DNA of 28,031 nucleotides from a virus. Lineage: Duplodnaviria > Heunggongvirae > Uroviricota > Caudoviricetes. The DNA lies in the IMG/VR virus record IMGVR_UViG_2740892212_000023; one strand, 5' to 3'. The notes under the pieces were generated by a model. It was not told the origin of the DNA and did not search any database. It saw nothing but the letters and a program-made list of their open reading frames with translations. The position numbers and the translations under genes are program-made. This document shows positions 4,873 through 28,031 of this stretch, piece by piece. The first letter of the stretch is position 1, and every line of letters starts with the position of its first letter.

Positions 4873-5306
4873 GCAGAGTAACCGCGATTATCTCCGCTCT
4901 GGTTATCTGCATCATCGTCGGCCTGTCATGGGCTGTTAATCATTACCGTGATAACGCCATTGCCTACAAAGAGCAGCGCGATAAAGCCACATCCACAATC
5001 GCTGACATGCAGAAGCGTCAACGTGATGTAGCAGAACTCGACGCAAGATATACAAAGGAACTTGCTGATGCTAACGCGACTATCGAAAGTCTCCGTGCTG
5101 ATGTTTCTGCTGGGCGTAAGCGCCTGCAAGTCGCCGCCATCTGTGCAAAGTCAACGACCGGAGCCAGCAGCATGGGCGATGGAGAAAGCCCAAGACTTAC
5201 AGCAGATGCTGAACTCAATTATTACCGTCTCCGAAGTGGAATCGACAGGATAACCGCGCAGGTTAACTACCTGCAGGAATACATCAGGACGCAATGCCTT
5301 CGATGA
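4869..5306 (+). CDS. Rz: Spanin Rz (i-spanin); N-terminus lambda-like, remainder divergent
   Basis: 145 aa. The first ~30 residues ([17 protein letters not shown]…NHYRDNAI) match lambda Rz, after which the sequence diverges. N-terminal TM helix plus coiled-coil character. Confidence 0.85.
5062..5253 (+). CDS. Rz1: Spanin Rz1 (o-spanin lipoprotein) embedded in the +1 frame of Rz
   Basis: ORF wholly inside Rz in another frame. Signal-peptide-like N-terminus with lipobox-like LGVSAC and a Pro-rich mature region. The exact start is uncertain. Confidence 0.65.
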
Positions 5307-18483: not shown

Positions 18484-20651
18484 TGGCTAAAGCATGGAAA
18501 GATGTTATCGCTTCTCCACAGTATCAGGCGTTAACTGAAGAACAGAAAGCACAGGCTCAAGCGCAATATTTTGATGAGGTTGTTGCCCCTAAGGCTGGTG
18601 ACAAATGGGCTGAAGCAAGAGATCAGTTTTATGCAGCATACCCTCCACCTCAGCAGCAGAAAGAAGAACCATCATTGATGCAACAAGCTGGTGATTGGCT
18701 CACAGGTGGTCAAAGTGCAGGGCAAATTGCAGAACAGGCTGGTCGTGGTCTGGTAAACATACCATTTGACGTATTACAGGGTGGCGCAAGTCTGATTAAT
18801 GCAATCAGTCAGGGGCTTGGTGGGCCAAAAGTATTGGATGATGTCTATCGTCCAGTCGATCGACCGACAGACCATTACGCGCAAGCCGGTGAAACAATTG
18901 GCGGGTATCTCCTGCCAATTGGTACAGCGGCAAAAGCTGCTGGAGCGCCAGCAAAGCTCGCTGGAGATATCGGTTCCGCAGGAAACATGATTACAGGTTC
19001 TCTTGCTGATGCTGCAAATCAGGAGGGCGACTTTGCACAAAATGCTGCCATTAACGGTGGTATAAATATTGGTGCTCAGGGGATACTTTCTGGGGCTGGA
19101 AGGATCTTAACCTCTAAATCACCTCAAGTTCTTGGTGGCGGGGCAATAAATTCCGCTGCTGATGTTTCGAAAATGGCAAAGTCTGGTACAGGAAGAGAGA
19201 TTATTGCCAGACAGTCAGCTAATGTGTCAGACGAAATAGCAAAAGCAGCAGATACTGCTGGAATAGATATCAACGCATTAACTCCTGGCATGAGATCAGG
19301 TAGTCGTGGTCTTGCTCAGGCGGAGGGGATTCTGGCGTCAAAGCCCGGAATTACACAGGATGCACACACCAAAGCATTCAGTGAAATAGAGTCGAAATTT
19401 AACTCAGCATTGGATGAGTTTGGGGCTGAAGCAGGAACTGCATCAGAAAAAAGTGCAGCCATAAAACAAAGGGTTTTGGCAAGTATTGATAAAATGAAAA
19501 ATTCAGAAAAGGCCGCATGGGATAGCGTCCGCTCCACGATGCCTGACGCAAAGGCCAGAATGTCAAACCTGAACGCTACAATTCAGGGTGATATTTTGGC
19601 CGGCATGCCGCTAACTCCTGAGATGAAACAATTCGCATCTGCTTATGCTAAAACTAGTAAAAAAGGAATCACGTTTGATGCCATGAAGGCATGGCGAAGT
19701 AAACTTGCTGACGCAGAGCAGAAGTATATAAGGTCTGGTGAGGCAAATACGGCAAGGCGCATGGCTGAGCTTCGTGATGCAGCAACGGAAGATATGCGCA
19801 TAATGGCTCAAAATGGCGGTTTTCTTGATGACTGGCAAAAAGCTAATGATCTGTCAAAAGCAAGATTTACAGCACAAGAACAGGCTGAAGCAGCGTTTGG
19901 TAGAGACCTTGCAACTGATCAGTTGGTAACTAATGGCTCTAAGGCGTTGCAGGGTTCAGCAAAAAGTGGAACAGGTCAGTTCCATAAAATAATAAGCGCC
20001 CTACCTGAGTCGGAACGCGCGCCAGCAATTGCATCAATATTACAAGATGCGGTATCGCAAGGGGTACGCGGAGGTAAGTCTGAAGAGGCTGGAATTAAGC
20101 ATATCGCGACTATTCTTACCCCACAAAACGTGAAGGCAATTAGTCGATATTCTCCAGAGCTTGGTAGGATTGCCAGGGGGTTTGGAGAACTTGCAAGAGC
20201 AGCAACAAAGCCACTTCGATATGTTGAACAAACAGGGCGCTCTATGCCAGCCATTAGCACTCTTGAGAATGGCCTTCATCCAGTTTTAGAGAGCGTATTG
20301 TCTGGCGCTTTTCCAACCGCTGGCGCTATCGCAGGGTTCTCTGGAGGAGGTGTTATTGGAGCAATAGTGGGTGGCGCTGCAGGTGGAGCAATTGATGCAA
20401 TAGCAAAAGGATCGATAGCGAAATTATCCGCAACCAGAAGTGGTCGTTACGCTATTGAAAAGGCTGTTCAAGAGGCGACAAAGGCAGTTAAAGTTGGGGC
20501 AAGTGATGGCGCATTAGCGGCGGCGGAACGCAGATTTATGGCAAATAAGGCCGCCGTAAAAGCAATTCGCGATGCACTAGGAAACGAAGAGTTCCAGCGT
20601 TTGTCGAGGGCTGGGATTGTGGCATCGCTAAGCGGAATGGCACAGGATTGA
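18483..20651 (+). CDS. Ejection protein, P22 gp16-like (longer than P22 gp16)
   Basis: 722 aa, in the gp16 position. Gly/Ala-rich C-terminal segment. Confidence 0.75.
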
Positions 20652-20668
20652 GGTGACGCCATGGATGG

Positions 20669-21118
20669 CTATTTTTTAAGGTAATAATCATCAAAATCGC
20701 AAGAAGCGGATATCACAGAACTTGAATCCATAGAAAAAGACAGGGTTTCGCATGCCTTTCCGGCCTGATGATATGCATGGATATCACCGGATACATATCC
20801 TCCTGTAGAAAACAACGATTTTTCACCGTTTTTTTCTACAAGAATGTGCTTATCTGAATCATTAATAAACCAAATGGAAATAGAGTGACTTTCGCCAAGG
20901 TCTGTTCTATTGAACACCTTAGGTTGGGTACCCTTGACAGCATTTTCGGCTCGCATAATCAGTTCAGCGCTTTTTTTGCTATTTTTTTGTTCTGTATAGA
21001 TTTTGTCTGCCACAAAATAAACAATGGCAATGGCTAACAAAGATAGGGAAATCAGCAATGCCTTTTTAATCAATTTTTTGGCATCCCTGTAAATCTCAAC
21101 TGATAATTTTTCACTCAC
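20669..21118 (-). CDS. Small membrane-anchored protein of unknown function (sieA-position moron)
   Basis: Minus-strand ORF 20669..21193. Likely start is GTG 21118 preceded by AAGGAGG; ATG 21193 is the alternative. One N-terminal TM helix (ALLISLSLLAIAIVYFVA) then a ~110-aa extracytoplasmic domain. AT-rich compared with the structural genes. Confidence 0.5.
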   Translation of the reverse strand: MSEKLSVEIYRDAKKLIKKALLISLSLLAIAIVYFVADKIYTEQKNSKKSAELIMRAENAVKGTQPKVFNRTDLGESHSISIWFINDSDKHILVEKNGEKSLFSTGGYVSGDIHAYHQAGKACETLSFSMDSSSVISASCDFDDYYLKK

Positions 21119-21183
21119 ACCAACCTCCTTAGTTTTGTGCAGGATACCAGATGATAATGTGTAGTTGGAGTAGCGCGGTTGTA

Positions 21184-21277
21184 ATGCAAGCATTTTGTTT
21201 TGGTTTTATGCTTGCTTGTATGTGTGTACAGTGCATATAATGCAAGCATACATCACAATAAAGGTGCTTGCATTATG
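21184..21277 (+). promoter_or_regulatory. Promoter with four copies of a 10-bp palindromic operator-like motif ATGCWWGCAT
   Basis: Motif at 21184-21193, 21208-21215 (partial), 21240-21249 and 21265-21273. -35 TTGCTT (21212-21217), 18-bp spacer, consensus -10 TATAAT (21236-21241). The copies overlap the -35, the -10/+1, the RBS/start of the downstream gene and the alternative start of the divergent gene. Confidence 0.55.
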
Positions 21278-22267
21278 ACTGAAAAGAAAAGTGGCGAAGG
21301 GAAAGCTAAGGGCGGTATCGCTCGCGCAAAGTCGCTGACTAAAGAGCAGCGTTCTGAAATAGCAAAGAAAGCAGCGGCTGCAAGATGGAAGGATAAACCA
21401 TTAATTGCTACGCATAAGGGATCGTTCCAGCATGAATTCGGGATTGATGTTGAGTGCTATGTGTTAAATGATGATAACAAAACTGCCGTTATTAGCCAGA
21501 GAGGCATGGGAGAAGCGATTGGTCTTGGCGAAGGTGGCAGCAGGTTGCCAAAGTTTATTCAGGGGAAAACTATTTCTCAGTATATCGGGCATGAATTAAG
21601 GGCAAAACTTGAAAATCCTCTTATTTTTCAATACAAACAGGCGGGCACGAACACTCCAGCTAATCCTGTAATACATGGCTACGATGTAACAATATTAATT
21701 GATTTATGTCGAGCAATCTCTAATGCTAAAGCTGAAGGTAAGTTGCTTTCCAGTCAGGAAGGGATTGCTAAGCAAGCCAGAATCATTATTGATGCATCAG
21801 CCAAGGCGGGCATTCAGGGGCTTGTTTATGCTTTGGCAGGGTATGACAGAACAAAAGAAGAGGTAATTCAAGCATATAAGCGATATGTTGCTGAAGAGGC
21901 TCGTGAGTATGAAAGAGAGTTCACCCCTGAACTTTATGAGCATTGGTATCGTCTGTATGGTATAGACAAACCAGTTAGAGGGCGACCATGGGCGTTTAAA
22001 TATCTTACGATAGATCACATTTATTACCCATTAGCCAGAAGTGAAGGAAAGGTATTTAATTTAGCAAAAACGTCAAAAGAAGAAAAAGGCAGCAAAAACG
22101 ATAAAATACACCAGTTTTTATCAGAGGTTGGAGTTAAGGCTCTTAGAACCCAAATAGGTAAGGTTACTGGTATTGCAATGGTTTCTGATACTCGAGAAGA
22201 GTATGAGAAATACATAGATGAAAAGGTTATTGGACAAAGAACCATAGACTTAAAAGATAAAGAATAA
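21275..22267 (+). CDS. Conserved phage protein with a basic N-terminus (…GGIARAKSLTKEQRSEIAKKAAAARW…); I attribute it to the P63C-domain family from memory
   Basis: ATG 21275 within ORF 21200..22267, giving 330 aa. The N-terminal motif and the following ATHKGSFQHEFGIDVECYVLNDDNKTAVISQRGM block resemble P63C-family proteins. Function unknown. AT-rich. Confidence 0.6.
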   Translation: MTEKKSGEGKAKGGIARAKSLTKEQRSEIAKKAAAARWKDKPLIATHKGSFQHEFGIDVECYVLNDDNKTAVISQRGMGEAIGLGEGGSRLPKFIQGKTISQYIGHELRAKLENPLIFQYKQAGTNTPANPVIHGYDVTILIDLCRAISNAKAEGKLLSSQEGIAKQARIIIDASAKAGIQGLVYALAGYDRTKEEVIQAYKRYVAEEAREYEREFTPELYEHWYRLYGIDKPVRGRPWAFKYLTIDHIYYPLARSEGKVFNLAKTSKEEKGSKNDKIHQFLSEVGVKALRTQIGKVTGIAMVSDTREEYEKYIDEKVIGQRTIDLKDKE

Positions 22268-22273
22268 GAAAAT

Positions 22274-22296
22274 CCCACCGTCAGGTGGGTTTTTTA
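22274..22296. terminator. Bidirectional intrinsic terminator between convergent genes
   Basis: Hairpin CCCAC-CGTCAG-GTGGG with a T-run on the + strand (22290-22296) and an A-run upstream that gives a T-run on the - strand. Confidence 0.6.
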
Positions 22297-22320
22297 TAAG
22301 GAGTAATCATGATTTACCCA

Positions 22321-22857
22321 TCAAACAACCCACCAGTTTGCCTGATTGGATGCCAGCCTTGCAGTTTTTATGGAATTAATTATGCCATGCTCAAGAGCCT
22401 TGTTAGCATCCAAAATGGTCGAGTCTGCTATCAGGGATGCCCACCTAATATGGGTTCCGATGTCGATATTGAACGTCTCAACGAAGCGATCAAGATCGTT
22501 ATCGAGGCATTTCCCGTACTCTCTCAATCTGGCATGGTCGGCGGCTGGGGAGGCAAAGCACCATAATAGAGGATGTAACAGGAATCTTGATAATGGGTTT
22601 GCGAAACGTTCTGAGCCAGCCAGGAAAACGATATTAGCTATGGATTCAACATTGCTTATGTTGTGAGTTCTAACGGTAACAGGGAGTGACTTAAGAAAGT
22701 TATACGCAGTAAAGCCAGCGGCAGTTTCCCCTCCCTGACTTGATATATGGATATTTAATTCAGTTGCGCCTTGAGATAATGCGGTGAGACAGTGGTTCTG
22801 AAGTTGCCCAACAGTGGCAGTGTTAACGGGGCATAAGAAATGAATTGTGTGCAGCAT
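22321..22857 (-). CDS. ClpP-family (S14-like) serine peptidase homologue, 178 aa
   Basis: Co-linear with the ClpP core: …NIHISSQGGETAAGFTAYNFLKSL…ISNVESIANIVFLAGSERFANPLSRFLLHP…DANKALEHGIINSI (ClpP: …YINSPGGVITAGMSIYDTM…[32 protein letters not shown]…SAPEAVEYGLVDSI). Candidate Ser, His and Asp triad positions are conserved. Its start overlaps the stop of the upstream Mnt-like gene. Confidence 0.7.
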   Translation of the reverse strand: MLHTIHFLCPVNTATVGQLQNHCLTALSQGATELNIHISSQGGETAAGFTAYNFLKSLPVTVRTHNISNVESIANIVFLAGSERFANPLSRFLLHPLLWCFASPAADHARLREYGKCLDNDLDRFVETFNIDIGTHIRWASLIADSTILDANKALEHGIINSIKTARLASNQANWWVV

Positions 22858-23105
22858 TATTTTTCATCCTTAGCATACATGGTCTTTAGCGTCTCAAGCA
22901 GCGCCTCTTTGAATTTGTCAGCTTCTTGCTGAGCAAATGACTCAACTGACTTTGGCGACCTATCTTCATCAATCGCGGCTTGCAAAATCATGACGATCTC
23001 GGAGTTAACAGAGCGACCATTTTTTGATGCTCTGACAGCAAGAGCCTCGCGTAAAGATTCAGGGATTCTTACCGTAGTTGGAGAAATTGACACACCCTTT
23101 GCCAT
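22857..23105 (-). CDS. mnt: Mnt-like ribbon-helix-helix repressor
   Basis: 82 aa from ATG 23105 (MAKGVSISPTTVRIPESLREALAVRASKNGRSVNSEIVMILQAAID…), compared with P22 Mnt …FRMPMEVREKLKFRAEANGRSMNSELLQIVQDAL…. Divergent from the arc/ant genes as in the P22 immI region. Confidence 0.75.
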   Translation of the reverse strand: MAKGVSISPTTVRIPESLREALAVRASKNGRSVNSEIVMILQAAIDEDRSPKSVESFAQQEADKFKEALLETLKTMYAKDEK

Positions 23106-23128
23106 ATCACACCTTTGGTATTCAATTT

Positions 23129-23219
23129 GATAGCAAAGTGTATGCAAAAAAATTTTGACTAGATATACTCACTTTGCTATCTTTTGTATTCGAAAAGAGT
23201 TGTTTGTGTGGAGGGTAAC
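23129..23219. promoter_or_regulatory. Divergent immI-like promoter/operator region
   Basis: Perfect 12-bp inverted repeat GATAGCAAAGTG (23129-23140) and CACTTTGCTATC (23170-23181). Between and after them: -35-like TTGACT (23155-23160), 17-bp spacer, -10-like TATCTT (23178-23183), then GGAGGG RBS before ATG 23220. Confidence 0.5.
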
Positions 23220-23391
23220 ATGGAGAAAGAAATAAGTAAGATTTTGGTAAGGATGCCGCAGTCGTTAAAGGATGCCGCAGTCGTTAAAGGATGCTATAGG
23301 TAGCAGGGCAAAGGAAGAGTGCAGGTCGTTTAACTCAGAGGTTATCAAGCGCCTGATAGACAGCTTGAAGAGAGAGGGGGTAATGGTATGA
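23220..23391 (+). pseudogene. arc: arc homologue (ribbon-helix-helix) disrupted by a 19-bp tandem duplication
   Basis: As it stands the frame is MEKEISKILVRMPQSLKDAAVVKGCYR* (stop at 23301). Removing one 19-bp unit restores MEKEISKILVRMPQSLKDAIGSRAKEECRSFNSEVIKRLIDSLKREGVMV, Arc-like (P22 Arc …RWPREVLDLVRKVAEENGRSVNSEIYQRVMESFKKEG…), ending in an ATGA overlap with the next ORF. Confidence 0.7.
23252..23294 (+). repeat. Tandem direct repeat, 2 × 19 bp (GATGCCGCAGTCGTTAAAG) plus a 5-bp partial third copy
   Basis: Units at 23252-23270 and 23271-23289, then GATGC at 23290-23294. The period is not a multiple of 3. Confidence 0.9.
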
Positions 23392-23591
23392 GTAAAGAAT
23401 GTTGTTTCTGCGGCATTAGCGAATCAGACGCTGATCAAACATACATTTACTCTAAAGAAACAGGTCGGATGCTGTGTAGTGACTGCGTGTTGGACATCAT
23501 AAGATACAAGCATCTTGGATGTTCTGCCAGCATTAGCAATATAGGTGAAGTATATGAAGGGAAAGATATAACTGATAGAGCAGAAAGTTGA
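23388..23591 (+). CDS. Small Cys-rich protein (putative zinc ribbon), 67 aa
   Basis: Two CxxC pairs (CCFCG…CSDC). ATG 23388 overlaps the stop of the reconstructed arc frame. P22 has no gene between arc and ant. Confidence 0.45.
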   Translation: MSKECCFCGISESDADQTYIYSKETGRMLCSDCVLDIIRYKHLGCSASISNIGEVYEGKDITDRAES

Positions 23592-23653
23592 AGCCCCAAC
23601 TGCGGTAACAGTCAGGGCTTCGGTATCAACAAATCGTCTTAGGAAATATTGAC

Positions 23654-24532
23654 ATGAAAAGTATAGCAAAGGCACAAAACGATTTCACCATCTTCAAATT
23701 CGGCGACAGTGAAATCCGCGTCATCAACAAGTGCGGTGAGCCGTGGTTTGTAGCTAAAGATGTTTGTGATGCTTTAGCTTTGACTAACTCACGCAAGGCG
23801 CTTACTGCACTTGATGACGATGAAAAGGGAGTAACTTTAAGTTACACCCTTGGTGGTGAGCAGAATCTAAGCATTGTGAGCGAATCAGGTATGTATACAT
23901 TGGTTCTGCGCTGCCGCGATGCAGTCAATAAAGGTTCAGTCCCGCACAAATTCCGCAAGTGGGTAACAGCAGAAGTTCTGCCTTCAATTCGCAAACATGG
24001 CGAGTATGTTAAAGGAAAGAAAACCACTGTTGAGGAAAGAACACCGCTACGCGATGCAGTAAACATGCTGGTAGGAAAGAAAGGACTTCGCTATGACGAT
24101 GCATACAATATGGTTCATCAGCGTTTTGGTATTGACAGCATTGATGAACTTTCAATTGAACAAATCCCGCAAGCTGTAGAGTACATCCACAGGGTAGTGC
24201 TTGAAGGTGAGTTCATCGGCAAACAAGAGAAGAAAACCAACGAGCTTTCTGCAAAAGAAGCAAACAGCCTTGTATGGTTATGGGATTATGCCAACCGCTC
24301 ACAGGCATTATTCCGCGAACTGTATCTGGCATTAAAACAAATTCAATCGAACTATTCCGGCAGATGCTACGACTACGGTTATGAGTTCTCGTATGTTATC
24401 GGAATGGCGAGAGATGTTTTAATCAACCATACACGAGATGTTGATATTAATGAGCCAGACGGACCAACGAATCTTTCCGCATGGATGAGACTTAAGAATA
24501 AAGAATTACCTCCTTCAGTACATAACTACTGA
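23654..24532 (+). CDS. ant: Antirepressor Ant (Bro-N-type N-terminal domain)
   Basis: 292 aa with …[32 protein letters not shown]…[16 protein letters not shown]…[18 protein letters not shown]…, the Bro-N/Ant signature, in the P22 ant position. Confidence 0.85.
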
Positions 24533-24550
24533 CAGATAACCAACGCAACG

Positions 24551-24576
24551 ACCCAGCTTCGGCTGGGTTTTTTTAT
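24551..24576 (+). terminator. Rho-independent terminator after ant
   Basis: Hairpin ACCCAGC-TTCG-GCTGGGT followed by a T-run. Confidence 0.7.
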
Positions 24577-24632
24577 GCCCAAAATTCACCGTAGCCATGC
24601 TGCGGCGATTCATTGTATCTGGAGCAAATTAA

Positions 24633-26795
24633 ATGACAGACATTACAGCCAATGTTGTAGTGAGTATGCCTTCGCAACTCTTCACTATGGCGAGTTCTTT
24701 TAAAGCTGTTGCCAATGGAAAAATTTATATCGGTAAAATTGACACTGACCCGGTAAATCCTGAAAACCAGATTCAGGTTTATGTGGAGAACGAAGACGGC
24801 TCTCACGTTCCTGTTTCGCAACCAATCATCATTAACGCTGCTGGATACCCGGTATATAACGGGCAGATTGCAAAGTTCGTAACTGTGCAAGGCCATTCTA
24901 TGGCTGTTTATGACGCATATGGTGCACAGCAGTTCTATTTTCCTAATGTGTTGAAGTATGAGCCGGATCAATTAAGGTTGGAGCTTGAATCATCTGGTGG
25001 AGCAGGATTGATAGGTGGTGTTTCGAAGCCTATTACTTTTTTTGGTGCTATTGGTGATGGATTAACAAACAATACGCAGGCATTTAACGATGCAGAGATA
25101 TCGGAATTCAATGACATATACATTCCTGATGGTATTTATAATGTAAATAATATTAACTTAAATAAGAGATATTGGGGGCCTGGCATAGTAGTGATTAATT
25201 ACCAGACTAAATATTCTGGCTCTGGTGTTAACGACATGACCGTGTCAGGAATATACAATGGACAGCAAGATCTAAATGCAATTGTAAGAATAAAAGAAGC
25301 TTCAAATCCTGATAAGCTTGAATTCAGTACAGATAATGGAGTTACATGGCGTGACACGATAGACGTGTACAACCCAATCGATGACAGTGTATCTCAGCAA
25401 CCAATCGTAATACTTGCAGGTGGGGTGGATTTTTTCGTAAGTGGATTGAAGATAAACTTTTCTTCAACCACTGGACATACAGTAAATGACTCATGGTCAT
25501 TTTTCATTCCTTCCAATCCATCAGTAATAAACACAGGAAGTGGCAGCATCGTTAAATCAGGAAGCGTTATTTTTAATGTTAGCGGAAACAATGATACTAA
25601 TACTTCCGCTGGAAAAGACTCATTAGGCGGTGGAAACGTAGGAGCTAACAATACCGCATATGGGTGGAAGAGTTTGCACTCAAACACTACAGGATACGCA
25701 AATACCGCGTCTGGGATTCAGTCTATGGAAAACAATAAGACTGGTAAAAACAATTGTGCATACGGTGCTGATTCTCTAAGAGCTAACGTATCTGGTTCTG
25801 ATAACGTAGCGGTTGGGGTTTTTGCGTTATGTGCAAACACAACAGGCTACGGTAATACTGGTATTGGTAATGATACTAACAGGTATAACAAAACAGGATT
25901 TGGGAATACTGCGGCAGGTGTGCAGGCCTTGTATCACAACAGTGCTGGTAATGAGAACACCGCTTTTGGTGAATATGCGTTACGTGGCGGTAATTCCAGT
26001 TTTCCTACGGGGGTGTCTATCCAGTATTGTGTTGCGGTAGGGGCTAAGTCGGGTTTCAACGCGTTAGGTAATAATAATACAGCTATAGGTTACGAGGCGC
26101 TATATTCTGCATCAGGATCTGATAATGTTGGTATTGGATTCGATGCAGGGTTTAAAGTAACGGCTGGATCTTTCAATGTATTTTTAGGTTCTAATTCTGG
26201 TAACGTGTCAGAGCAGGCTACAGATGTGACAAACTGCGTCCTTCTCGGAGATAATACAAAATCAACCGGAAGTAACGCAGTAGCTATCGGTAGTGGGGTA
26301 ATTGCCGCTCAGAATACTGTAGCTATAGGTAATAGTGAGCATGAATTATTCTTTCATTATGGGAAAATTACACCACAAATTGATAATGCTTTTGATATTG
26401 GTGGGCCGGATGCGAGATATAAAACAATATATGCAACTACAGGAATGATAAATACATCAAATGAAATGTTGAAAACAAAACTAACAGACATTGATGTTGC
26501 TGAAAAAAAAGCTGCACTAGAAATAAAAGATAATATTAAAAAGTTTAAGATGCTGGATTCTGTTGAGGTAAAGGGATTTGATGGTGCTAGGTGGCATTTT
26601 GGTGTTGGAGCTCAAACTGTTGGTAATATAATGAGGAAGCACGGACTTGATCCTAGTAAGTATGGGTTTTGGTGTCACGATAAAACGCATCGCGAACACA
26701 TGACTGGAAATATAGATATCTTTTGTGAAAGTTATGGTATAAGATATGACGAACTTGCAATGTTTATATTGGCATCAATATCTTTATGTGAATAA
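24633..26795 (+). CDS. Tailspike protein: P22 gp9-type head-binding N-terminus, G/N/T-rich repeat receptor-binding region, C-terminal S74-like intramolecular chaperone
   Basis: The N-terminal ~115 aa resemble the P22 gp9 head-binding domain ([11 protein letters not shown]…[33 protein letters not shown]…). The central region carries about 15-aa repeats of the form N(T/N)A.G…AL…N..G. The C-terminus begins SNEMLK (Ser-x4-Lys spacing as in S74 autoproteolytic chaperone domains). AT-rich after about 24950. Confidence 0.85.
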
Positions 26796-26865
26796 ACTTT
26801 GTAAATGAAGTGAATTGCAAATCCTTGTACTTGATTGCAAGGCTTTGTGCTCTTCGATAATGGTT

Positions 26866-26885
26866 AAGGTGGATCACTCCACCTT
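26866..26885. terminator. Hairpin at the convergent tailspike/integrase junction
   Basis: AAGGTGGA-TCAC-TCCACCTT followed by TTT on the + strand. Overlaps the 3' end of int. Confidence 0.4.
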
Positions 26886-28031
26886 TTCATCAAGCCAGTC
26901 CGTCCACCATTGCATCATTTCTCTGCGCTTATCGAGATACTGAGCATGGTTGTAAATCCCGCGCACAGATCCGCCGTTGGCATGTGCCAGTTGCACTTCA
27001 ATAGCATCAGCAGGCCATTCGTGCTCGTTCATAATCGTGCTGAATTCATGCCTGAATCCGTGACCGCTTTCCAGACCCTCATAGCCGATTTGTTTGATCA
27101 CAAGTAGCACCGCGTTCTCGCAGATTGGCTTCTTCTTATCGTTGCGCCCGGCAAAAACAAACTCTGATACTGGTTTAGTGATGGAGCTTAGCGTAGTGAG
27201 AAGTTCAACCACCTGGTCTGACATAGGAACAACATGAATCTTGCGGCCCTTCATCACACTGGCGTCGATAGTGATAATCCTGTTTTCAAAATCGACGTTC
27301 TTCCATTGCATGGAGCGAAGCTCTTTCGTTCTTAGGGCTGTGTAGCGTAAAACTTTGGTCGCAATGAGCGATATGATGCTTCCTGAAAATGTTGCCAGTG
27401 CTTTGTTGAATGCAGGGATCTGGTCTGCTGGGAGAAACGGGAAGTTCTTCTTGCGGTATCCCTTCATGGCGTCAGCAAGGTCAGGTGCCGGGTTATATTT
27501 AGCCCTACCAGTGACAATAGCGTAACGGAAAACCTCGCCGCATCTTCTGCGGGCTTTGTTGGCTCGCTCCATTGCACCGCGATCTTCAAATCTGCGGATT
27601 ACTTCCAGCAGTTGCATCGGCTCAATATCCTGAATTTCAAGGCCGCCGATGATAGGTAAAATGTCGTCATCAAACATTTTTGCAAGTTCAGTTGCATAGC
27701 CTACTGACCAGACTTGCTTCTTGTGCTCGTACCATTCCTTGTAAATCGCACTAAAGGAATTGTTGTTAGACGAAGCCTTTTTCGCTTTTACCGGATCGAT
27801 GCCAACCGAGATGTCTTTCCTCGCGGTCCATGCTTTATCTCTTGCCTCCTGCAAAGTCATTAGCGGATATTTTCCTACGGTCAGGATTTTCTCCTTACCG
27901 TCAATCTTGTAGCGAAGCTGCCATACCTTTTTCCCTGACACAGGGACATAAAGGTACAGGCCATTACTATCGAGTAGGCGGTATGGTTTTTCTTTCGGCT
28001 TTGCTGCTTCAATCTGCTTAACGGTGAGCAT
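26874..28031 (-). CDS. int: Tyrosine site-specific integrase (P4-like N-terminal arm-binding region)
   Basis: 385 aa; the ATG is the last three bases of the window. N-terminus MLTVKQIEAAKPKEKPYRLLDSNGLYLYV…GKKVWQLRYKIDGKEKILTVGKYP…, C-terminal catalytic motifs …GHGFRHEF… and …RGIYNHAQYLDKR…. Confidence 0.9.
   Translation of the reverse strand: MLTVKQIEAAKPKEKPYRLLDSNGLYLYVPVSGKKVWQLRYKIDGKEKILTVGKYPLMTLQEARDKAWTARKDISVGIDPVKAKKASSNNNSFSAIYKEWYEHKKQVWSVGYATELAKMFDDDILPIIGGLEIQDIEPMQLLEVIRRFEDRGAMERANKARRRCGEVFRYAIVTGRAKYNPAPDLADAMKGYRKKNFPFLPADQIPAFNKALATFSGSIISLIATKVLRYTALRTKELRSMQWKNVDFENRIITIDASVMKGRKIHVVPMSDQVVELLTTLSSITKPVSEFVFAGRNDKKKPICENAVLLVIKQIGYEGLESGHGFRHEFSTIMNEHEWPADAIEVQLAHANGGSVRGIYNHAQYLDKRREMMQWWTDWLDEKVE

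Follow-up and report, generated by a model that had tools for sequence, protein, structure and literature searches.

Genetic organisation of the immI region

The window, by which we mean the whole stretch of 28,031 nucleotides that was analysed, carries a P22-type immI module, upstream of which lies a full set of P22-like late and structural genes. The module and its neighbours follow the order mnt, a Pant-like promoter, arc, a 67-aa open reading frame (ORF), sar, ant, tailspike (720 aa) and integrase (385 aa); mnt is on the minus strand, divergent from arc on the plus strand, and ant lies downstream of arc on the same strand. Because Ant and the tailspike are exactly the E. coli RefSeq proteins WP_061801482.1 and WP_061801483.1, we take the host to be E. 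coli. In contigs from sister prophages, discussed below, the integrase gene is followed by yfdC-, mlaA- and fadL-like host genes.

The mnt-like gene (22857–23105, minus strand) is intact and encodes an 82-aa ribbon-helix-helix repressor that matches the Arc family of Pfam (PF03869, E 9.5e-11) and is represented in relatives by WP_001051912.1. A promoter scan places a Pant-like sigma-70 promoter, TTGACT-17-TATCTT with an extended −10 TG, at 23155–23183 on the plus strand, and alignment shows its sequence to be identical in the relatives. The same intergenic region contains a perfect 12-bp inverted repeat, GATAGCAAAGTG at 23129–23140 and CACTTTGCTATC at 23170–23181, with 29 nt between the arms; of these, the right one falls within the Pant-like promoter, in its spacer, and the left one is on the mnt side. 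The arms are candidate half-sites of an Arc/Mnt operator, and to our knowledge they are unlike the operators of P22.

Immediately beyond arc lies the 67-aa ORF (23388–23591, plus strand), which encodes a CxxC...CxxC protein. It has GAGGGGG as a Shine-Dalgarno sequence of its own, and its start codon shares bases with the stop codon of an intact arc in the form ATGA. The first-pass annotation had reported an intact ant downstream of arc, and this holds, with the qualification that the ORF overlapping the arc end is the 67-aa ORF and not ant. The exact 67-aa protein is found on at least 1000 contigs, and a Pfam profile search gave no significant match for it. Its identification as a ClpX-type zinc finger was considered and set aside, since it has no significant Pfam match and only a weak BLASTP relationship (E 0.024); the partner in that BLASTP alignment is a 60-aa ORF, found in relatives at the same position between arc and ant, which itself matches the ClpX C4 zinc finger PF06689 (7.6e-11). 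Across 54 related loci, the slot between arc and ant behaves as a variable cassette, in which the arc stop overlaps, as ATGA or GTGA, the start of a small ORF that may be any of several unrelated kinds, among them a 57-aa ORF as well as the 67-aa and 60-aa forms.

The antisense RNA gene sar is located at the translation start of ant (23586–23652, minus strand), where it is recognised by Rfam RF00262 with 74.5 bits against a gathering score of 43 (E 5e-15). Sar is complementary to the region where ribosomes bind on ant, and its match stops one base short of the start codon, ATG 23654; the promoter scan gives a promoter-like site for it at 23688–23660, inside the 5' end of ant. The ant gene itself (23654–24532, plus strand) begins 263 bp beyond the end of a restored arc and is the next gene after the 67-aa ORF. 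It is intact and encodes a 292-aa antirepressor, WP_061801482.1, with Bro-N and P22_AR_C domains, equal in length to a cluster representative found on 740 contigs. An intrinsic terminator follows at 24550–24569.

On the other side of the module, directly beyond mnt, a gene at 22321–22857 (minus strand) encodes a 178-aa ClpP-like protein (PF00574, E 2e-11). Together with the free ClpX-type zinc-finger ORF that relatives carry nearby, this gene gives a hint that the phage might interfere with host ClpXP or make use of it. The interval from the DNA-ejection genes to the ClpP-like gene contains a gene for a P63C-domain protein (PF10546; 21275–22267, plus strand) and an ORF of 149–174 aa with no recorded domain (20669–21193, minus strand). 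This stretch differs between otherwise similar prophages and thus looks like a moron or accessory-gene slot. A GC-rich hairpin with a T run, AAACCCACCTGACGGTGGGATTT, at 22270–22292 on the minus strand between the P63C gene and the ClpP-like gene is probably an intrinsic terminator; its resemblance to the terminator end of sroH (15.9 bits, gathering score 80) is at chance level.

A tandem duplication in the arc reading frame

The arc gene starts at ATG 23220, 5 nt after a strong Shine-Dalgarno sequence, GGAGGG. Read directly, the frame from this codon (23220–23303, plus strand) gives MEKEISKILVRMPQSLKDAAVVKGCYR, a product of 27 codons ending at TAG 23301–23303; it comprises 19 native codons and then 8 out-of-frame residues, with the stop at codon 28. 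The shift coincides with a tandem repeat on the plus strand at 23249–23294, which Tandem Repeats Finder describes as an array of period 19 with 2.4 copies, 100% matches and a score of 92. A repeat search resolves the array into two exact 19-nt units of AAGGATGCCGCAGTCGTTA, at 23249–23267 and 23268–23286, followed by a partial third copy at 23287–23294. The two exact units are those that had been reported from the sequence at first reading; the partial copy is 8 bp long, AAGGATGC, and not the 5 bp given there. This 8-mer occurs three times in the window, at 23249, 23268 and 23287. The array corresponds to a perfect self-match of 27 positions at an offset of 19, the longest tandem self-match in the 28-kb window, and in 200 shuffled sequences the mean was 10.5 and the maximum 17, which shows that the repeat is not a product of chance. 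Alignment with relatives identifies the extra 19-bp unit as an insertion relative to the common state.

When one unit is deleted, the frame yields a 50-aa product, MEKEISKILVRMPQSLKDAIGSRAKEECRSFNSEVIKRLIDSLKREGVMV, ending at TGA 23389–23391 and therefore in the ATGA overlap with the following ORF, as the first-pass annotation had stated. The restored product is identical to RefSeq WP_000410000.1, an 'Arc family DNA-binding protein'. It matches PF03869 with an E-value of 4.4e-12, residues 8–48 aligning with profile positions 7–47 and so spanning the β-strand, helix A and helix B, and its residues 5–47 align with residues 7–49 of P22 Arc chains in the PDB (E about 1e-4). The assignment of the gene as an arc homologue is thus well founded, as is the proposal that the duplication truncates it to 27 codons and inactivates it.

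The window contains no ORF that could provide a folded Arc dimer, the frame being shifted after codon 19, and the 27-aa product gave no match in a Pfam profile search. By alignment to P22 Arc, residues 6–12 of the present protein correspond to the P22 Arc β-strand, the element that reads the operator. The 27-aa product keeps this strand, but helix B is missing altogether and so is the greater part of helix A. What remains of arc in the original frame is a 39-aa ORF (23272–23391, plus strand) equivalent to Arc residues 12–50, which begins at the duplicated Met12 codon, ATG 23272, covers Arc profile positions 11–47 only, and is without the N-terminal β-strand. Independent initiation at this codon is probably poor, judging from the sequence, because the Shine-Dalgarno-like AAAGG directly adjoins the ATG and the spacing is therefore bad. 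The two fragments thus divide Arc between them, the 27-aa product having the β-strand but no helical dimer core and the 39-aa product the reverse, and we conclude from these reading frames that a functional Arc dimer cannot form and that arc is null for DNA binding. Rescue by ribosomal frameshifting was considered and dropped: the product would gain a 6-aa insertion in helix A, and no slippery motif was seen between the duplication and the stop codon at 23301–23303. The arc copy in the window is a pseudogene of the Arc/Mnt family, and annotations should label it as such.

Within the window a 9-mer, ATGCCGCAG, is present in arc at 23253–23261 and again at 23272–23280, and is the reverse complement of CTGCGGCAT at 23408–23416 in the 67-aa ORF.

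Distribution and origin of the two-unit allele

The first-pass annotation had suggested comparing related prophages at the repeat, and in this comparison all of those examined were found to carry a single unit. Among complete E. coli genomes, each of the 97 that cover the query has one unit, with 142–144 bp aligned out of the 161-bp query. The single 144-bp match, in E. coli HH97, was examined as a possible odd repeat allele and excluded as such, its 2-bp difference lying in the Shine-Dalgarno region of a one-unit gene. The HH97 prophage (NZ_CP116409.1, 1791098–1794241) has an ORF for a 54-aa hypothetical protein in the usual place of mnt, an ant annotated as two ORFs for the N- and C-terminal parts, a truncated tailspike and an intact arc.

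A gapped pattern accepting either the one-unit or the two-unit form was run on IMG/VR, on metagenome contigs and on species-representative genomes. All of its matches, in 33 IMG/VR contigs and 11 metagenome contigs, are 37 bp long, the one-unit length, and neither form was found in the species-representative genome set. A pattern for the two-unit junction was likewise absent from IMG/VR and the species-representative genomes, and the zero-unit form expected from the reciprocal 19-bp deletion was absent from IMG/VR. Three phage records gave alignments exactly 19 bases shorter than the query and so also have one unit.

Searches at the protein level agree. Translation of arc in 54 related loci gave 54 complete ORFs of 50–51 aa with very few substitutions, and the exact intact 50-aa Arc is found on at least 1000 contigs. 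Exact lookups of the ORFs expected from a two-unit allele recovered no such allele; forms of the truncated frame that start further upstream, at TTG or GTG, gave no record, and the 39-aa ATG ORF was found on two contigs, neither of them two-unit, one ending inside arc and the other being a 245-bp contig (NCBI GCA_051339565.1). The latter is an assembly-graph chimera in which arc is joined to the region of the 67-aa ORF at ATGCCGCAG/CTGCGGCAT.

The closest comparisons are with copies that share the rare Ant and tailspike of the window (GCA_001592575.1 and Logan ERR302867, ERR302863 and ERR144894), in which every readable copy has one unit. Contig BBUV01000040.1 of the E. coli draft GCA_001592575.1 aligns with window positions 5122–25989, over 20.8 kb, with 0 mismatches and one 19-bp gap, and Logan contig ERR302867_49 aligns with positions 20614–28031, over 7.4 kb, again with 0 mismatches and one 19-bp gap. 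The duplication is thus the sole difference over the compared stretches, and Pant, ant, sar and mnt are accordingly free of any change that might compensate for it.

These observations are best explained if the two-unit allele is a private and very recent loss-of-function mutation of arc in an otherwise intact P22-like (Lederbergvirus-type) E. coli prophage, a reading to which we give a probability of roughly 0.6. The one-unit gene would have been its ancestor. It contains AAGGATGC twice, 19 bp apart, as does every one-unit relative that was aligned, and this is a standard substrate for replication slippage. A nascent strand on which the second 8-mer had already been copied would re-pair with the first, so that the intervening 19 bp would be copied again; the resulting 19-bp insertion would shift the frame after codon 19 and bring in a stop at codon 28. 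Reversion by slippage between the two units would also be possible. The first-pass annotation had listed, among its options, a recent inactivating mutation in a domesticated prophage. The sister prophages, which differ only by the 19-bp gap, are in keeping with a recent mutation; domestication finds no counterpart in window positions 5122–25989, where no other difference is seen.

The main alternative is an artefact of sequencing, assembly or editing, a possibility also raised at first reading, because no other public sequence that was examined carries two units. The source would then really be one-unit, and the extra 19 bp would have come from read consensus, from a chimeric or amplified template, or from later handling. 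Apart from the gap, the two independent assemblies of the same prophage, the NCBI draft (20.8 kb) and the Logan contig (7.4 kb), agree with the window at every base compared, and both are one-unit. The failure of the ORF lookups to yield the allele, like its absence from every public sequence examined, is what an artefact would predict just as well. That the locus can give rise to assembly-graph artefacts is shown by the 245-bp contig joined at the 9-mer. Against this, the repeated stretch of 27 bp is shorter than the k-mers usual in short-read assemblers, so one-unit reads should not be able to assemble as two units through graph ambiguity. The insertion also has precisely the form that biological slippage at an 8-bp microhomology would give, and typical sequencing errors are substitutions or homopolymer indels rather than clean 19-bp duplications. 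We regard an artefact as a serious but distinctly less probable explanation than recent slippage in the prophage.

The first-pass annotation had further proposed a reversible ON/OFF switch, in which the 19-bp unit would expand and contract by slipped-strand mispairing, toggling Arc and with it antirepressor output and prophage inducibility. A perfect tandem duplication is indeed able to contract by slippage, the site lies within a regulator of an accessory circuit for lysis and lysogeny, and the 8-bp flanking repeat is conserved in all aligned alleles. The two 8-mers, however, sit in different codon phases of arc, encoding V-R-M-P and K-D-A, and protein-level constraint alone therefore explains their conservation. 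The forward event has just 8 bp of homology to draw on and is expected to be uncommon, and one additional copy of a long unit does not resemble the known contingency loci. Across about 145 related loci the searches met with neither a two-unit nor a zero-unit allele, and 54 of 54 arc ORFs are full length. The comparison thus lends no support to the proposal of an evolved switch, and we consider it very improbable. Reversibility is common to all tandem duplications and as such does not speak for an evolved switch.

Selection by the host could also be invoked, an arc-null allele being favoured as an early step in domestication if it blunted lytic development after induction while the benefits borne by the prophage were kept. 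Such crippling would accord with the underproduction of late proteins by P22 arc mutants, as reported by Susskind (1980) in the account of PMC12111858, and the HH97 prophage, which carries the same arc allele in its one-unit form, suggests that immI regions can decay in lysogens. The allele, however, occurs once, with no sign of spread; the compared 20.8 kb are otherwise identical to the sister prophage and show no other decay; and selection is not inferable from one private allele. The likelihood of this explanation is accordingly slight.

Just as improbable, in our estimation, is a more elaborate scheme in which the two-unit allele is a heritable lineage state that leaves the prophage silent but armed. 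Without Arc, induction would abort through runaway Pant and Ant expression, and occasional slippage to one unit would restore a productive phage; alternatively, the 39-aa fragment might poison the Arc of superinfecting relatives by forming inactive heterodimers. If true, the heritable two-unit state would make prophage productivity a matter of stochastic switching, a form of bet-hedging.

Expected phenotype and comparison with known systems

In P22, Mnt is the repressor of the prophage state and keeps arc and ant off. Arc represses Pant and mnt in the lytic cycle, and the antisense RNA Sar prevents ant from being translated (PMC11016777, PMC12111858). A P22 arc mutant overproduces early proteins and underproduces late proteins, according to Susskind (1980) as cited in PMC12111858.

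By analogy, a recent arc mutation would have little effect on the resting lysogen. Mnt would still repress Pant and Sar would still block translation of ant, so that the prophage would be kept; since mnt and sar are intact, a two-unit lysogen should be stable. Once the prophage is induced, or a new host is infected, there would be no Arc to turn Pant off, and runaway expression from Pant and of Ant should follow. If the outcome resembled that in P22, there would be an excess of antirepressor and early proteins, fewer late proteins and a lower phage yield. Loss of Arc should therefore matter mainly in lytic growth, and the physiological significance attached at first reading to an arc defect alongside an intact ant needs this qualification, the Pant repressor of the prophage state being Mnt and both mnt and sar being intact. 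Strong polarity on ant appears unlikely because no more than 85 nt lose their translation and the 67-aa ORF is served by a Shine-Dalgarno sequence of its own. The phenotype proposed here is an extrapolation from P22, from which the present system differs in its distant Arc (E about 1e-4), its operators and the extra ORF between arc and ant.

The region as a whole corresponds closely to the P22 immI region in the order and orientation of its genes, with divergent mnt and arc, ant downstream and then the tailspike. In both, the two repressors are Arc-family ribbon-helix-helix proteins and Ant has a P22_AR_C domain, and the sar of the window, with its Rfam score of 74.5 bits, includes 41 bp that are 100% identical to P22. 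In a module of this type Arc and Mnt bind operators at Pant/Pmnt and Ant inactivates the C2 repressor of the prophage; the window offers a promoter-like site and the 12-bp inverted repeat as candidate signals for such binding. The differences are nevertheless considerable. The Arc of the window has 50 residues and is only distantly similar to P22 Arc, a 67-aa ORF separates arc from ant, mnt is flanked by the ClpP-like and P63C-domain genes, the promoter-operator region has its own 12-bp inverted repeat, and the N-terminus of Ant is Bro-N rather than P22_AR_N. Above all, the arc of the window is frameshifted.

As a mutation, the duplication belongs with the slippage events known at short direct repeats. 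Such duplications and deletions reportedly account for the lacI hotspots of Farabaugh et al. 1978, and Albertini et al. 1982 are said to have described deletions between short repeats. Here too a pre-existing 8-bp repeat, 19 bp apart, bounds the segment, and the result is a perfect tandem copy and a frameshift; the case is mechanistically ordinary and has no feature to distinguish it. Simple-sequence-repeat contingency loci have many copies of 1–7-nt units, with copy number varying widely between strains. The arc duplication resembles them in that a change in repeat number shifts the reading frame and is in principle reversible. In contrast to them, it consists of one extra 19-nt unit and shows no variation in the relatives, which comprise the 97 E. 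coli genomes, 33 IMG/VR contigs, 11 metagenome contigs, 3 phage records and the sister contigs. With a known gene family, a known regulatory module and a known mutational mechanism, represented by one sequence only, the locus introduces no new regulatory principle.

A further parallel is with the P22 arc amber and null mutants of Susskind (1980), as these are cited in PMC11016777 and PMC12111858. In those accounts, as in the window, Arc is lost while Pant and ant are intact, and the shared outcome to be expected is unrestrained Pant activity in lytic growth. The P22 mutants are laboratory point mutants with measured phenotypes, whereas the window carries a natural 19-bp duplication in an E. 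coli prophage and is known from its sequence. If the duplication is real, it provides a natural arc-null P22-like E. coli prophage for which an isogenic wild-type counterpart is already public, and this pair could be used to address how important Arc is for lytic growth in the E. coli Lederbergviruses compared with P22.
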